This document shows, one piece after another, positions 8,411-14,259 of a DNA stretch of 21,854 nucleotides. The position numbers and the translations under genes are program-made. The notes beneath the pieces were generated by a model that was given only the letters and a program-made list of their open reading frames with translations, ran no database searches and was not told the DNA's origin. Source of the DNA: Candidatus Wukongarchaeum yapensis (GTDB lineage Archaea > Asgardarchaeota > Wukongarchaeia > Wukongarchaeales > Wukongarchaeaceae); NCBI GenBank assembly GCA_016840425.1, contig JAEOSI010000012.1, positions 1 through 21,854 of the forward strand, in the 5' to 3' direction. Every line of letters starts with the position of its first letter. The stretch's first letter is position 1.

Positions 8411-9175
8411 CTATTCTCCAAATCTTCGTTCGCGATCTTGGAAATTGCGAATGGCGCGAAGAAGATCGATTTTTCTAAAAAGTGGCCAAAAAACGTCTGA
8501 AAAGTAGAGTTCACTATAAGCGCTTTGCCAAAGAAGAAAACCAGACATACGTTCTTCACCACTGGAACGAATTATTAAGTCTGGCTCTGGGAGCCCCGCA
8601 GTGGATAAATGGCTATCGATAAGGGCTTCATCTATTTCATCTAAGCTTAGAATTCCTCCTAAGACCTTTCTAGCAACCTCTTTAAAAGCGTCTATTAATT
8701 CGGTTCTACCACTATAACCAATCGCGATATTGAGCTGAGAATTGTCATAATTTTCAGTGGCTTTTTCAGCCTCTTTGATAGCTTCCCGAACATAGTCAGG
8801 GAGTAAATGAATGCGACCAATAGCCCGAACTTTTATCCTATTTCCATGAATCCTTTTGTCAGTAATTATGTTGTTAAATTTTTCTTCAAACAAACGCATT
8901 AAGACCTCGACTTCTTCTGGGGGGCGTCTAAAATTTTCTAAAGAAAAGGCATAAATTGTAACTACTTCAATACCAAGTTCACAACACCAATCAAGAAAAT
9001 CTTCAAGTCTCATAGCCCCAGCTTGATGAGCTATAAAAACAGATAATCTACGGGATCTAGCGAACCTACGATTTCCATCTAGAATAATTGCTAGGTGTTT
9101 TGGCATGTCTTTACTTTTAATCCGCTTCCAAAGCAGCCATTCATAAAGCCGATAAATGGGAGCAAAAATACTCAA
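8411..9175 (-). CDS. uppS: cis-prenyltransferase (polyprenyl diphosphate synthase)
   Basis: PKHLAIILDGNRRFAR, YAFSLENFRRP, YSGRTE, PDLIIRSSGEERMSGFLLWQSAYSE, RRFG. Likely start TTG 9175 or GTG 9184 rather than ORF-track 9268. Confidence 0.95.
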   Translation of the reverse strand: MSIFAPIYRLYEWLLWKRIKSKDMPKHLAIILDGNRRFARSRRLSVFIAHQAGAMRLEDFLDWCCELGIEVVTIYAFSLENFRRPPEEVEVLMRLFEEKFNNIITDKRIHGNRIKVRAIGRIHLLPDYVREAIKEAEKATENYDNSQLNIAIGYSGRTELIDAFKEVARKVLGGILSLDEIDEALIDSHLSTAGLPEPDLIIRSSGEERMSGFLLWQSAYSELYFSDVFWPLFRKIDLLRAIRNFQDRERRFGE

Positions 9176-9387
9176 ACGATACACGCCCACTCTTAAAATT
9201 AGGCTAATGAAAAAACGCAAAAGATTATTAACACAAGTGTGTGTTAAGTTATGGAAAGTAGGAAACAAAATATTTAATTCTTATTCTACTACTCAATAAA
9301 AATTATTAATAAAGATGAATAATAAAAAAGTAAGAATAAAGAGTACTAAAAACTGCAAGATATTTAAAATATGGCAGGTGTATATAT

Positions 9388-9759
9388 TTGCATATAGGGC
9401 GTGTAGAAGAGATTAGTGCGATACTCGACGAACTGGGGTCTTCAATAGAGGAGATTGAAGGATGTGCCGTTGTTTCAATTGAAGGCTTACCGATAGCAAG
9501 TTCTCTACCTGAAGGGATAGATGATACAAAGATTGCAGCAATGACGGCGGCAATGTTATCCTTAGGTGAAAGGGCGGTACTTGAGATAGGGAAAGGCGCA
9601 CTTCAACGTGTTTTTACTGAGGGAGAAAATGGATTTTTAATAGCAATAAACGCGGGACCTAATGCTGTACTTACGGTAATAGCTTCTCAGGAAGCAAAAT
9701 TAGGCCTACTTTTTCTTGACATAAGAAGAGCTGCAGAAAGAATAGCTACACTTATTTAG
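9388..9759 (+). CDS. Roadblock/LC7 (MglB-like) domain protein
   Basis: CAVVSIEGLPIASSLP, IAAMTAAMLSLGER, KLGLLFLDIRRAAERI; RBS GCAGGTG upstream. Confidence 0.9.
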   Translation: MHIGRVEEISAILDELGSSIEEIEGCAVVSIEGLPIASSLPEGIDDTKIAAMTAAMLSLGERAVLEIGKGALQRVFTEGENGFLIAINAGPNAVLTVIASQEAKLGLLFLDIRRAAERIATLI

Positions 9760-9901
9760 AATAAAATCATCAAAAACAATTCAATTCTTTTATATTAACC
9801 ATTTCTTATTTTAGGTTAATTTTTACATCTATTAAAAGTAGTAGAGATTAATATTAAGTGAACCCAGATTGTTAATTTCAATTTTTTAGGAGGAGTGGAG
9901 T

Positions 9902-10492
9902 TTAATGGGCAGTCTTAATGCCATAAAGTTGTTTGAGGAGTACTTCACGGGATAAGGTCTGAAAAGCTCTTTTAACGCCGATACCCTTTACGGCTATTGT
10001 TTCATATACGGGGATACTTGAGTTTTCAAGGCTTAAATCTTTTAGGATTTCTTCTCTTGACATTGCGTCATCGACATCTCGTTTATTTAAGGCAATTACT
10101 AATGGTATTTGATCCCCTAAAACGTCTCCTACTATATCTTTTAGTTCTTGTAAGGATTCTATATTGTCTTGTTTCATACTTCTTGAGCTGTCTGCTACAA
10201 AAAGTACTCCGTCTGCTCCCCGCATAATCACTTTTCTTTGGTGTTTATGCCGGGTTTGGCCAGCTACGGTGTATACGTCAAATAATATTTTTCCGCTGGC
10301 ACTCATCGGCACAAAGTCGAAGAATAGGGTGCGACCTGAAGGATCTTCGATCGATGTGAATCCTCCTTTGTCTAAGCCTTCTACATCGTCATAGACATAT
10401 CTTAGACTTGTGGTTTTTCCACCGAGGCTTGGACCCCAATAAACAAGTTTAAAATGAAGTCTTCCTTCACTGTCTTTTCGAATTTTTGCCAC
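9902..10492 (-). CDS. mglA: MglA-type small GTPase
   Basis: KLVYWGPSLGGKTT (G1), GRTLFFDF (G2 with intrinsic Arg), YTVAGQ (G3), NKRD (G4), ETIA (G5). Confidence 0.9.
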   Translation of the reverse strand: MAKIRKDSEGRLHFKLVYWGPSLGGKTTSLRYVYDDVEGLDKGGFTSIEDPSGRTLFFDFVPMSASGKILFDVYTVAGQTRHKHQRKVIMRGADGVLFVADSSRSMKQDNIESLQELKDIVGDVLGDQIPLVIALNKRDVDDAMSREEILKDLSLENSSIPVYETIAVKGIGVKRAFQTLSREVLLKQLYGIKTAH

Positions 10493-10587
10493 CCCGCTAT
10501 TTTTTTAATGGAATTAAAAATATAAAAATCGAATATTTTATCTGAGGAATATCGTTTATTTTTGGTGCTTGATTTATTTATTTGCAG

Positions 10588-11058
10588 TTAGAATTTTTCA
10601 AGTTCTTTTAAGGCAGCTTCTAATTCTGCCCTTTCGCTTGTAGATTCTTCAGCAGTTGCTTCTATTGGTTTTTCTGCTAGAAATTCTTGAAGTAGTGCTT
10701 TAAGATCGTCAGTAGCCTTTTTCATGACAAGGCGTACAAGGCCTATGTTAACTTCAGGATCGGTTATGACGCATAAAACGCCCCTTCCGCAACTTGCGGC
10801 AAAAATTTTTCCTTCGTCAAACTCAGAAGACACCATTAAGAGATCTCCAATATCGAGATTTCTTCCCTGTTCTTCGCTTGCACAAAAAACGGCGCTTGCA
10901 ATGGCCCCTATTCCATCTACGTCAACCGATGATGCGCTATACCTTGAAACATGAGCAATAGTAAGACCAGTTCTATCAACAAGGATACATTTTTTTATAG
11001 CGGAATCTGCTTTTACTACTTGACCTAACGCGCGGTCAAACTCTTTTAAAGCTATCAT
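10588..11058 (-). CDS. mglB: MglB-like roadblock protein with C-terminal helical extension
   Basis: CILVDRTGLTIA, IGAIASAVF, NIGLVRLVMKK; directly upstream of mglA; GGAGG RBS; tail ERAELEAALKELEKF. Confidence 0.82.
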   Translation of the reverse strand: MIALKEFDRALGQVVKADSAIKKCILVDRTGLTIAHVSRYSASSVDVDGIGAIASAVFCASEEQGRNLDIGDLLMVSSEFDEGKIFAASCGRGVLCVITDPEVNIGLVRLVMKKATDDLKALLQEFLAEKPIEATAEESTSERAELEAALKELEKF

Positions 11059-11225
11059 TGGTATAAGACGCCTCCGATTAATCCTAAGTGAGTTTTACAA
11101 ATAATAATTTTAAGATTCCAATCCTCCTAACTTGTATAATATAAATAATTATTAAAAAGTTTTTTAATTGTTTTGTCCGCTTTTGTTATACTTTTATAAG
11201 GTTTTTATAGTTTTTTGCACAATAA

Positions 11226-11350
11226 GTGAACTACTGCTACCCATCGGAGGAGCTTCTTGATTCAACGACTGAACTTGTCAAGATTTCTCTCAGTAGAGGT
11301 TCCGTCTCCACAGACGTAAATTCGGATGGTCCCTGCCCTACCACTTCCTC
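11226..11350 (-). ncRNA. IS200/IS605 right end / putative TnpB omegaRNA scaffold
   Basis: Minus strand reads GGGCAGGGACCATCCGAATTTACGTCTGTGGAGACGGAACCTCTAC...AAGTTCAGTCGTTGAATCAAGAAGCTCC...GTAGTTCAC, the typical tnpB 3' end ending TTCAC at 11226. 5' boundary approximate. Confidence 0.65.
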
Positions 11351-11677
11351 TAAACCTCTTTTCAAGACTACAACAAGAGTTGTAGTCCTTGTCAATTTCT
11401 AACCCACAAGTAGGACATCCATGGTTTCTTACAGCCAAACTCTTCTTCACTTTTTCGCCACATTTATAACATTCTTGTGACATTCCTGCCGGGTTAACTT
11501 CTAAAACCGTTTTACCAGCTCTTTCAGCCGTGTAAAACAGATATTGTATGAATTTGTTCCAAGAGGGATCCATGAGGTTCCGAGCATTATAACTTAATTT
11601 TTATCAAGCCGTTTATGTTTAATTTCTCAATAGCTATAAAATCATAGTTGTTAACATAAAATTTTGATAATTTGTGT
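11262..11677 (-). pseudogene. tnpB: tnpB 3' fragment (RuvC-II, Zn ribbon, RuvC-III), frameshifted
   Basis: HKLSKFYVNNYDFIAIEKLN, MDPSWNKFIQYL..AERAGK, CYKC..CPTC, DKDYN. Frameshift near 11600 and a probable second near 11375. Confidence 0.9.
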
Positions 11678-11695
11678 TAGGACTTACGCACTTGG
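11678..11695 (+). repeat. IS701 terminal inverted repeat (TAGGACTTACGCACTTGG)
   Basis: Matches the reverse complement of 12754-12771 (TAGGAGTTACGCAGTTGG) at 16/18; TSD TGTGT at 11673-11677. Confidence 0.93.
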
Positions 11696-12691
11696 GTTAA
11701 TTGGGTTAAGGGTGTAAGTTGGGTGGGTTAAGTAGGTTCTGATTGCCTCGCGGACAATGTCTATCTTAGCCTCATACCAGCTTATACCGGTCTGCAGCCG
11801 GCGTGCTTCCAGCCTGACGAAGGAGCGGAGCGCTAGCAAGATGTGCCTCTTCTGGGCTGCAGCGCTCCTAACTTGAGCCTTCTCAACGCCGCAGCACTGC
11901 TTAACAACCCTATGATAGGTCTCGATACCCCAACCCTGCTTTTCCAGCGCTTTCCGCTTCTCTTCCAGCATGTCAAGATCGCTAGCGGCCCAGTATTCCG
12001 CGTCCCCGTTTTCAGAGACTGTTAGGAAAACCTTAACGAAGCCGTAGCCCTTAAGATGCACAACCCTCCCCCCGGCAGGAATATCGACGGAGCTTAGGGG
12101 GACATTTCCCTTCCCATCAGGGTTAACGAGGCGGTTGCTTTAATTAAGCCTCGTCAACCAAGACCAGCCGTAACCCGCAAGAACCTTCAGGTTCTTCAAG
12201 CCGGCGTACCACGAGTTGAAAAGCACGTATGCCGGCTTAAAACCGCGCTCCTTAGCCTTTTTAAGCATCTCCCGAAAACGCTCGTTCTTAGTCCCTCCTC
12301 CGAGGGGTTTATCGTAGACGCTGAAATCACAGGGAACAAGGGCCTTTCCATCCGTCCAAAGCAACGTTAGGAGGCTGATGCCCTTAACCACCCGCCGGTG
12401 CTTCCCGCTCCAATGATAGGTCACCAGCTCTATCCTTGAAGCGTAAGGCTTATCCAGCGTGGTGTCATCCAGCACAAGCATGCCCCTATCAAGCTGAACG
12501 AGGCCCCGCGTCTCCTCTCACAAAGCCTCCGTGTCTGGAGGCTTTCTGCTCAGCAGCCTGGTGAAGGAGTCTTGGGCCGGTGAATGTTTGCTTTTACGCT
12601 GGCATCTAGCCGCTTCCGTGCACGTGAAAACCTTCTGAGCCGCGATCAGAAACTGAATATAGTCCAGATCATCACACTTCGGAGGGTTCAC
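11684..12691 (-). pseudogene. IS701-family DDE transposase with two in-frame stops
   Basis: One frame from GTG 12691: MNPPKCDDLDYIQFLIAAQKVFTCTEAARC..., LVLDDTTLDKPY, YHWSGKH, WGIETYHR. TGA at 12518-12520 and TAA at 12140-12142; terminal TAA lies inside the TIR. Confidence 0.9.
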
Positions 12692-12753
12692 GACCTAACA
12701 CCCACCATATTTTTGACCCGCTAATATTTATAACCGTCGAAAGAAACTACCAA

Positions 12754-12771
12754 CCAACTGCGTAACTCCTA
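12754..12771 (-). repeat. IS701 terminal inverted repeat (TAGGAGTTACGCAGTTGG)
   Basis: Partner of 11678-11695; TSD TGTGT at 12772-12776. Confidence 0.93.
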
Positions 12772-12890
12772 TGTGTAAAAAATCATCCCTCTGGTTTTTG
12801 ATCTTTTCATGGATTTTTGCAACCTTGATCTTCTGCTTTTTATAATTGGTAGAATCCTTTACTTTTTTTGATAATTTTCGTCGTTTTTTC
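12772..12890 (-). pseudogene. tnpB: tnpB middle fragment (helix preceding RuvC-II)
   Basis: KRRKLSKKVKDSTNYKKQKIKVAKIHEKIKNQRDDFLH; joins in frame to HKLSK at 11677 when the IS and one TSD are removed. Confidence 0.88.
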
Positions 12891-12899
12891 CCAAAATTT

Positions 12900-13200
12900 T
12901 TCAAAAAGTAATAAAGATGAATAAATAAGACTCCATAGAAAACAAAGAAAACAAAGAAAAAGAGAGATAAAAACCAGAAGAAAAAAACAACAAAAGAACA
13001 AACATCAAGGAAAAACCTGGATACAATCAGCAAAAACCACCAGAATCCCATTTCAACCCCCTAAAAAGAAAAACTGAAAAAACACAAAAAAACAAAACTA
13101 CAAAAAACAGATCTCCACGCAAAAAAACAAAACAGAAACCCCCCCCCCCAAAAAAAAAACTATTAAAAGCCTTCGAAAACACACACAATAATTAAAGATG
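12900..13200. other. A/C-rich, T-depleted low-complexity tract
   Basis: 3 T in 60 nt at 12961-13020 and again at 13081-13140; C11 then A10 run at 13139-13159. Confidence 0.8.
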
Positions 13201-13370
13201 GATAAAAGGAACTGTATAAAATTGTTATTTTTAAATAATGGTTTAAATGTTTTTTAGAATACAGTTTTTTAATGATGTTTAATATATATTTCTTCTTTTT
13301 CTAAGTTTTAAAGAAGAGGGCAAGAATTTTTTTCTATTATTTTTAGGGACATTATAGTGGGGGTATTGTA

Positions 13371-13667
13371 TTAAGTGAGTTTTTCTCGGAGTACTACGAG
13401 TACGTATTCTTCTTCAGGTGCCACTAATATTTCGCTATTTCCGCAATCTATGTTGAAAAAGCCTAAAGCGCCTTCGCCAATTTCCGTGATCACTTGTTTT
13501 GCTTTTCCTACGAGGCTTGTAATTAGGGCGGCAACCTTTTCTGCTTTTTGCATATCTACACCATCTGCACTTATGGGTAGACCTTCATTGCTCATAACAA
13601 TAACACCGCGCACTCCAGGATGTTCGCGGAACCGTTTTATGGTTTCATTAATTTTCTTGGTAATCAT
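13371..13667 (-). CDS. Dynein light chain roadblock (DYNLRB)-like protein
   Basis: 98 aa; INETIKRFREHPGVRGVIVMSNEGLPI...KAKQVITEI...EILVAPEEEYVLVVL follows the eukaryotic DYNLRB pattern. Confidence 0.85.
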   Translation of the reverse strand: MITKKINETIKRFREHPGVRGVIVMSNEGLPISADGVDMQKAEKVAALITSLVGKAKQVITEIGEGALGFFNIDCGNSEILVAPEEEYVLVVLREKLT

Positions 13668-13875
13668 TTAGTGATCATCCCTTTTGATATACTTTCTTTT
13701 GATTTACTTTACTTTTATAAATTAATTATTTAAAAATATAGTGTGCTTCTAAACTCACTAACAAACTCCTCTAATCCTAAAATATAAATTAACAATCTTT
13801 AAATCGTGTAAAAAAGAGGATATTTAAAAAACTAATTAGATTTTAATAAGATGTGGTATTGTGTGGTGTTAATTA

Positions 13876-14259
13876 GTGAGCTTCAATGTTCTTGAAGAGG
13901 CTGTTGCAAGAACTATGAGATCTATAGAAAATTTGGAAGGAATAATCGTGATTTCACGAATAGATGGTTCTGTAATCGTTGGTCAAACCATTTTCGAGCT
14001 TGAACATGAAAATATCGCAAAGGAAGCATTAGAGTTGGTAACAAGGGCTTCTAAACTTGGAATTGCCGTAGAAAAAGGAGGAAATGAAGAGGTTTTTGTA
14101 GGATTGCGAGAAGGATTTGTAGTGGTCGTTGGTACGGGCAACACCATTTTAGCGGGAATTGCAAGTGCAGACGCTAAACCGGAAAGGGGCATAATTACGA
14201 TAAAGCTTAGAAAGTTAGCGGAAAAACTAGACGCCCTCTTAAGGGCAAAAGTTGCTTAA
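13876..14259 (+). CDS. Divergent roadblock/profilin-like fold protein
   Basis: Helix, then LEGIIVISRIDGSVIVG, helix, beta-rich EEVFVGLREGFVVVVG, terminal helix GIITIKLRKLAEKL. Confidence 0.65.
   Translation: MSFNVLEEAVARTMRSIENLEGIIVISRIDGSVIVGQTIFELEHENIAKEALELVTRASKLGIAVEKGGNEEVFVGLREGFVVVVGTGNTILAGIASADAKPERGIITIKLRKLAEKLDALLRAKVA

Follow-up and report, generated by a model that had tools for sequence, protein, structure and literature searches.

The window analysed here, 21,854 nucleotides in length, is the entire contig C125 (JAEOSI010000012.1) of the metagenome-assembled genome (MAG) of the Asgard archaeon Candidatus Wukongarchaeum yapensis (GCA_016840425.1; 2.16 Mb, 92% complete). Between uppS and a translin-like gene (14401, + strand), calling of open reading frames (ORFs) located five intact genes encoding a small GTPase of the MglA family and four mutually divergent roadblock proteins, at the same coordinates as in a preliminary description of this DNA. 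That four such genes lie around a bacterial-type MglA, as this description had proposed, is borne out by the intact ORFs, by Pfam, PDB and AlphaFold2 (AF2) evidence and by the Group-1 signature of the GTPase. Pfam detected 10 matches to Robl_LC7 in the whole genome; RobD brings the total of roadblock genes to about 11, four of which are found inside 4.9 kb. The features of the locus are the following:

8411-9268, - strand: UppS (cis-prenyltransferase), conserved flank; NCBIfam uppS TIGR00055, 7e-84
9388-9759, + strand: RobA, full-length roadblock, 123 aa
9902-10492, - strand: MglA-family small GTPase, 196 aa
10588-11058, - strand: MglB-like roadblock, 156 aa
about 11231-13187, - strand: decayed nested transposon, 1,957 bp, between the MglB-like gene and RobC
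13371-13667, - strand: RobC, DYNLRB/LC7-type roadblock, 98 aa
13876-14259, + strand: RobD, divergent full-length roadblock, 127 aa, divergently transcribed from RobC

The closest named relative, L001, entered the databases as the MAG 'Candidatus Hodarchaeota archaeon DZ1B.339'; its MglA is 94% identical to that of the window. It is followed by Asgard MAGs labelled Heimdall/Hod, at 58-62% identity. L001 is free of insertion sequences (IS) at this locus and shows the order RobD(-) RobC(+) MglB(+) MglA(+) RobA(-), in agreement with the earlier suggestion that RobC, mglB and mglA were adjacent and co-oriented before the insertion took place. Even though the insertion cuts RobC off from mglB-mglA, all five genes are still intact, and they are under purifying selection, with ratios of nonsynonymous to synonymous substitutions (dN/dS) relative to L001 ranging from 0.016 in RobA, through 0.047 in MglA, to 0.25 in RobD, at or below those of housekeeping neighbours (0.14-0.38).

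Identity of the GTPase and of the roadblock proteins

Judging from its sequence, the GTPase is an MglA carrying the catalytic signature that Wuichet and Sogaard-Andersen assign to Group 1 (Myxococcus/Thermus type; PMC4316618). Its best PDB matches are Thermus and Myxococcus MglA (3T12, E-value 4.1e-35; 5YMX, 1.1e-34), the next family, Ras/Arf, reaching only 1e-7. The alignment revealed the P-loop (G20/G25-K26-T27), the switch-I residues R54-T55, the G3 motif T75-x-x-G78-Q79 and the motif N136-K137-x-D139. In G3 a Thr occupies the place of the usual Asp (TxxGQ instead of DxxGQ), which, like the intrinsic Arg, follows the motif definition given in PMC4316618 and PMC10933270. Among 21 Asgard and bacterial MglA sequences, G78 and Q79 are invariant and T75 and R54 are each kept in at least 90%. 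According to Pfam and PDB comparison, the protein consists of a single G domain and lacks the C-terminal roadblock domain of Rag-type GTPases.

The roadblock protein encoded next to MglA matches Pfam Robl_LC7 above the cut-off (7.3e-10). Its best PDB match is Myxococcus MglB at 2e-4, barely ahead of further roadblocks from Asgard archaea (5e-4). With the NCBIfam model for MglB (NF052242) it scored 26.8 bits against a cut-off of 200, which leaves the protein outside the curated family. Because this score is far under the cut-off and MglB in the PDB is matched only at that E-value, we refer to the protein as MglB-like. Its assignment to MglB is the weaker one, and is backed by three features: the place immediately upstream of mglA (with which the gene shares the strand, at a distance of 95 bp; the mglB-mglA order is present in at least 30 related loci), the length and a conserved C-terminal motif. 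The C-terminus is made up of a variable linker followed by the motif E-L-x-A-A-L-x-E-L-E-K/R-F/V, a putative helix, which is kept in nearly all full-length MglB orthologues of the cluster and is lost or altered in the copy of one family only (f5). In one further genome the MglB orthologue is seemingly split into two overlapping ORFs of 99 and 106 aa (L072:7786-8456), which may be due to a frameshift or an assembly error.

RobC is DYNLRB-type by length, fold and sequence. It matches Robl_LC7 at 3.6e-19, the roadblock of Odinarchaeota LCB_4 (7F8F) at 7e-22 and the eukaryotic dynein light chain roadblock at 1e-13 to 1e-12. The AF2 model (predicted local distance difference test, pLDDT, 92.9) has the topology a-b-b-a-b-b-b, the C-terminal helix a3 being absent, and its top Foldseek matches are dynein roadblock chains, with template modelling (TM) scores of 0.81-0.89 and 31-35% identity. 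The protein was not filed as a dynein subunit; to our knowledge dynein is not known in archaea, the source genome not having been searched for it. Sequence comparison thereby confirmed what had been noted previously, namely that one of the roadblocks is DYNLRB-like and another is MglB-like with a C-terminal tail.

For RobA, besides Robl_LC7 (5e-18), matches were obtained to a Thor roadblock (7F8M, 1e-22), to MK-D1 Roadblock3 (9JUE, 1.4e-22) and to CvnB5 (3LEQ, 4e-8). In this genus only, the gene (9388-9759; L001:8429-8800) is inverted relative to MglA and UppS, whereas in all other families it is co-oriented with RobC, MglB, MglA and UppS where these are present. In the region 9300-9900 nucleotide identity to L001 falls to about 80%, compared with about 90% on both flanks, the protein being 95% identical, and the dS of the gene is 1.85 versus 0.2-0.6 in its neighbours; this may represent a tract recombined from a more distantly related genome, or else noise from saturation in so short a gene.

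RobD is the most divergent of the four, with a Robl_LC7 match of only 0.019 and a PDB match to MK-D1 Roadblock2 (9JQ8) at 8e-10. The possibility that it is not a roadblock at all, raised by that Pfam value, was rejected, given that 16 of 24 orthologues match Robl_LC7 (E-value of 0.01 or lower, the best being 6.5e-13), that the RobD family profile matches the RobC profile (96.5% probability, E-value 7e-10) and that the AF2 model (pLDDT 92.5) shows the full a-b-b-a-b-b-b-a fold, superposing on MK-D1 Roadblock2 (9JQ8), the Thor roadblock, MglB and LAMTOR chains with TM scores of 0.77-0.92. Among the genes of the cluster, RobD is the fastest-evolving member, not only by its dN/dS but also by its mean pairwise distance (1.46, versus 0.43-0.73 in the other four genes).

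Conservation of the cluster in Asgard archaea

The synteny sample comprised 40 relatives, drawn from 18 of the phylum's GTDB families (designated here by f numbers), from which 40 loci were fetched and their ORFs classified. The complete arrangement RobD<- ->RobC-MglB-MglA-RobA(-UppS) was found at 15 loci, belonging to 7 of the 18 families (f1, f6, f8, f12, f15, f16 and f18). At these loci the four rightward genes are co-oriented, often with gaps below 100 bp, and UppS is usually the next gene. Reduced versions occur in most of the other sampled families, including four-gene versions in f3, f7, f10 and f13. Families f7 and f13 have RobC-MglB-MglA-RobA; f10 has RobD|RobC-MglB, with MglA on a separate contig; and f3 has RobA-MglB-RobC|RobD without a cluster-type MglA, its only MglA-like gene, 48% identical, being located elsewhere. 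Conservation in IS-free relatives, on which the preliminary description had made its proposal depend, is thus seen across many families.

The RobC of L086, a member of f3, matches 7F8F over its full length (5.6e-55), indicating that this family is Odinarchaeota LCB_4-like and that one solved structure comes from this very cluster. The corresponding matches of RobA from L068, in f6, to 7F8M (1.3e-24) and of RobD from L090, in f9, to 9JQ8 (7.8e-18) are between homologous, not identical, proteins, which gives no ground for assigning either family to a named taxon.

In other families the arrangement departs from this order in further ways. The f2 locus contains MglA-MglB-RobC, with RobD 6.6 kb off at the contig end, and f4 and f14 retain RobC directly upstream of MglA, with MglB and RobA elsewhere. 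In the 93%-complete f5 genome (L096), RobD-RobA-MglB lies beside UppS, with RobD and RobA on unusually long branches, and searches of this genome for MglA and RobC found neither. The GTPase-rich family f9 has the RobC-RobD pair alone and its MglB and MglA-like genes are dispersed, which fits the statement of Tran et al. that in MK-D1 the GTPase genes are generally not in operons with roadblock genes (PMC10933270), a study in which the five-gene cluster is not described. Finally, the Heimdall/Hod-labelled genomes L002-L015 carry MglB-MglA-(YhbY)-RobA downstream of an A24 peptidase, with a divergent RobC (33% identity) elsewhere; RobD was not found in them.

A maximum-likelihood tree of 128 roadblock proteins separates the RobC (support 99/99), MglB (98/93), RobA (94/86) and RobD clades, each of which spans sampled families; RobD is recovered as a single group in 86% of bootstrap trees, and the RobA group also takes in one other paralogue of the source genome (G000). 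Therefore, the four roadblocks are old paralogues that predate the sampled radiation and not recent duplicates. Chance clustering or a recent tandem duplication was rejected on the basis of this tree and of the recurrence of the synteny in distant relatives.

UppS adjoins RobA in f5, f6, f8, f12, f13 and f15 (with gaps of 17-34 bp in f8 and f15) and lies 2 kb off in f18, L070, L077, L081 and L093 being among the loci that have it near the cluster; it is a conserved neighbour of the module that may not belong to it functionally. In f16 a PMT-type dolichyl-phosphate-mannose glycosyltransferase is inserted between RobC and RobD (L082:2876-3994). These two neighbours hint at a link to polyprenol/glycosylation genes, or at plain synteny. 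In f6 only, a Sec23/24-like protein of 538-554 aa is encoded directly upstream of RobC on the same strand (L068:9589-11205, L075:9077-10741 and L085:8564-10195); the L068 copy, the sole one run through Pfam, has the vWA 'trunk' and the Sec23/24 beta-sandwich, and its N-terminus is zinc-ribbon-like. The same genome also has, between MglA and MglB on the opposite strand, a Rab-like GTPase split in two ORFs of 85 and 79 aa (L068:7837-8349).

Proposed mode of action and relation to known systems

In Myxococcus, MglB is accompanied by a roadblock paralogue, MglC, which recruits it, and Asgard MglB homologues have been modelled on their GTPase together with the C-terminal helix (PMC13408092). By analogy with MglB plus MglC, we consider it fairly probable that the locus encodes an MglA/MglB switch conserved in Asgard archaea, to which three roadblock dimers would be accessory. 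The analysis directly establishes what the genes encode, their folds and catalytic motifs, the age of the orthogroups, the conserved synteny, purifying selection and the IS history, whereas all binding and enzymatic steps are inferred. By homology with solved bacterial complexes, the MglB-like protein would most likely be a homodimer that binds MglA-GTP and positions the intrinsic Arg54 and Gln79 of the GTPase, leading to faster GTP hydrolysis, and its conserved C-terminal helix would provide a second, allosteric contact, a mechanism already modelled for other archaeal pairs (PMC13408092). RobA, RobC and RobD would most likely be separate dimeric adaptors binding MglB, MglA or other partners, and their dimers may tune or localise the switch in the way that MglC does for MglB in Myxococcus.

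Some observations weigh against this proposal. Similarity between the MglB-like protein and bacterial MglB is weak, and a role as GTPase-activating protein is suggested mainly by gene order and architecture. Solved Asgard roadblocks are homodimers (PMC10933270), but proteins that were expressed one at a time and crystallised as homodimers might nevertheless form heteromers. Moreover, the module breaks up in some lineages, as seen for RobC-RobD without MglA in f9, for f3 without a cluster-type MglA and for RobC-MglA only in f4 and f14, and because of this break-up the accessory roadblocks may have partners other than MglA.

A rather unlikely alternative is that specific heterodimers, for instance RobC/RobD and MglB/RobA, stack into one MglA scaffold resembling Ragulator, as a forerunner of LAMTOR2/3 plus LAMTOR4/5 and of dynein LC7. 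A set of old paralogues, four in number and differing in length (98, 123, 127 and 156 aa), would be in keeping with it, as in Ragulator, and so would the survival of sub-pairs after the cluster has broken up, with RobC and RobD adjacent in f9 and MglB and RobA adjacent in f3 and f5. Borderline Pfam matches point in the same direction (RobC to LAMTOR5, 27.3 bits for a cut-off of 27; the MglB-like protein to MAPKK1_Int/LAMTOR3, 25.3 bits for a cut-off of 25). Co-folding of RobC with RobD gave an ipSAE of 0.34, graded as weak support, against 0.00 for the best control, the controls being unrelated proteins and not paralogues; the runs share at least 89% of their contacts, and the pLDDT of the partner is 78 or higher. 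Of 80 solved complexes 58 attained the pass mark, as did 2 of 110 mismatched pairs, and passes at or below 0.60 comprised only 7 of the 80 solved complexes and both passing mismatches. Passes of this weak grade, however, are wrong in most cases, and the RobC-RobD score may reflect memory of solved roadblock dimers.

Other data also argue against a heterodimeric scaffold. The solved relatives of RobC (7F8F), RobA (7F8M, 9JUE) and RobD (9JQ8) are homodimers (PMC10933270; PDB entry titles), and the GTPase is MglA-type instead of Rag-type, without the C-terminal roadblock domain. No LAMTOR1-like gene is evident among the ORFs of the cluster, although no search aimed at LAMTOR1 was made. In an exploratory comparison of distance matrices the residual correlation of RobC with RobD is only 0.30, versus 0.75 for MglB-RobC and 0.61 for RobA-MglA. 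Such mirror-tree style correlations (five orthogroups, 14 loci), highest for physically adjacent genes, were given no weight, since they are non-independent and confounded by linkage. The heteromeric platforms put forward in the preliminary description are possible but not favoured, the solved Asgard relatives being homodimers and the co-fold support weak. That the four paralogues form one multi-subunit platform controlling MglA, be it as specific heterodimers or as stacked homodimers, likewise seems doubtful to us. Were it true, the ancestor of dynein LC7/DYNLRB, and perhaps of LAMTOR subunits, would first have regulated a GTPase of the MglA type, at a time when neither dynein nor Ragulator existed.

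It is also conceivable, albeit quite improbable, that RobC and RobD, and perhaps RobA, serve a partner other than MglA (another GTPase, a cytoskeletal or a membrane component) and that their clustering with mglBA is inherited synteny. The RobC-RobD pair survives in f9 without MglA, MglB or RobA nearby; the Odin-like f3 and f5 hold roadblock clusters without MglA; L002-L015 keep MglB-MglA-x-RobA without RobC or RobD in the cluster; and RobD evolves 2-3 times faster than the other genes. However, even deeply diverged lineages have kept the genes co-oriented and separated by very short gaps, and RobC stays directly upstream of MglA in f4 and f14 even where MglB has moved away. The long RobD and RobA branches in f5 look as if constraint depended on the missing partners, an anecdotal observation that likewise speaks for a connection to MglA.

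The proposed MglA/MglB switch with accessory roadblocks resembles the bacterial systems of Myxococcus xanthus and Thermus thermophilus in its TxxGQ G3 motif, the intrinsic switch-I Arg and the insert between G1 and G2, in the position of a roadblock gene directly upstream of mglA and in an MglB-like protein with a putative C-terminal helix. There is also precedent in bacteria for a GTPase having more than one roadblock (MglC; 1:2 systems). Unlike those systems, which have one or two roadblock paralogues, the cluster has four in an archaeal host, one of them of the DYNLRB type otherwise seen in eukaryotes and Asgard archaea; it contains no RomR/RomX/RomY or Frz genes, and its MglB-like protein is remote. 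A combination of a roadblock with an MglA-family GTPase is also known from the actinobacterial conservon (kinase CvnA, roadblock CvnB, CvnC and the MglA-group-2 GTPase CvnD), but no histidine kinase or CvnC (DUF742) was present among the scanned adjacent ORFs and the GTPase belongs to Group-1, not to Group-2.

On the eukaryotic side, the cluster shares with Ragulator-Rag (LAMTOR2/3, LAMTOR4/5, LAMTOR1 and RagA/C) the presence of several roadblocks of two size classes together with a small GTPase, and LAMTOR chains can be superposed on the models of RobD and RobC with TM scores of 0.72-0.83; it differs in its MglA-type GTPase without a C-terminal roadblock domain and in the homodimeric state of the solved Asgard relatives. 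RobC resembles dynein DYNLRB1/2 (LC7) in length, in the fold without a3 and in sequence, but its gene apparently forms an operon with mglB and mglA, and a role linked to a GTPase is thereby suggested. Among the solved roadblocks of Asgard archaea (7F8F, 7F8M, 7YH1, 9JUE and 9JQ8) are the nearest solved relatives of RobC, RobA and RobD; each was studied on its own, as a homodimer (Tran et al. 2024, PMC10933270), and for the later entries no publication was found. It can be hypothesised that the locus is intermediate between the MglAB and the Ragulator/dynein architectures, as was initially put forward.

Parts of this set were known before, namely MglA/MglB, Asgard roadblocks and the 'MglA bacterial-like' GTPases of MK-D1 (PMC10933270). 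Liu et al. (bioRxiv 10.1101/2020.10.19.343400) listed three roadblock/longin and two GTPase families among the Asgard-specific core genes and reported a different operon, with a LAMTOR1-like roadblock, a Rab-like GTPase and DENN, most such genes lying outside conserved neighbourhoods. No description of the five-gene cluster was found in the literature searched, subscription journals and supplements being outside the search. Asgard genomes encode dozens of small GTPases and roadblock/longin proteins, and genome layout rarely reveals which regulator pairs with which GTPase (Tran et al. 2024, PMC10933270). The cluster is an exception to this rule, joining one GTPase to four candidate partners across many Asgard families. 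Such a matched set of GTPase and regulators is rare. The archaea carrying it are the nearest archaeal kin of eukaryotes, and among its members is the prokaryotic protein most closely related to the dynein roadblock light chain. Partner binding, effects on the GTPase and the choice between homomers and heteromers would bear on the origin of Ragulator-type and dynein-type roadblock usage.

The nested insertion and the rest of the contig

The window and L001 are colinear except for 11231-13187, a stretch at both ends of which roughly 9 bp of the L001 sequence align. A truncated TnpB element of IS200/IS605 type makes up the outer part (about 11231-11680 and 12772-13187), and nested into it is a GC-richer (about 0.49) IS remnant of about 1.09 kb with a frameshifted DDE transposase (about 11681-12771). 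The domains identified by Pfam are:

11262-11573, - strand: Cas12f1-like_TNB, 8e-17
12140-12481, - strand: DDE_5, 1e-6
12728-13051, - strand: OrfB_IS605, 1.3e-12

At least eight other copies of the outer element exist in the source genome (contigs C134, C109, C180, C59, C137, C143, C54 and C205), at 80-85% identity, and in them query position 450 adjoins 1542. The element in the window is without about 740 bp that the copy on C19 has. No other copy of the inner DDE element was detected in the assembly. With its IS-split cluster and inverted RobA, the locus is a slightly damaged copy, and the IS-free L001 locus or the compact loci of f8, f15 and f16 would be better starting material.

Next to the cluster, the ORFs called and scanned encode UppS, a methyltransferase, the translin-like protein and SepRS (O-phosphoseryl-tRNA ligase, 2e-160). 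No tRNA genes were found in the window. A C25-like peptidase on the contig adjoins a 436-aa protein without a Pfam match. Besides SepRS, the rest of the contig (31-3841, 15137-16615 and 18639-21270) carries genes for ribosomal protein S2, L7Ae, NDK, endonuclease V, mevalonate kinase, isopentenyl phosphate kinase and type-2 IDI.

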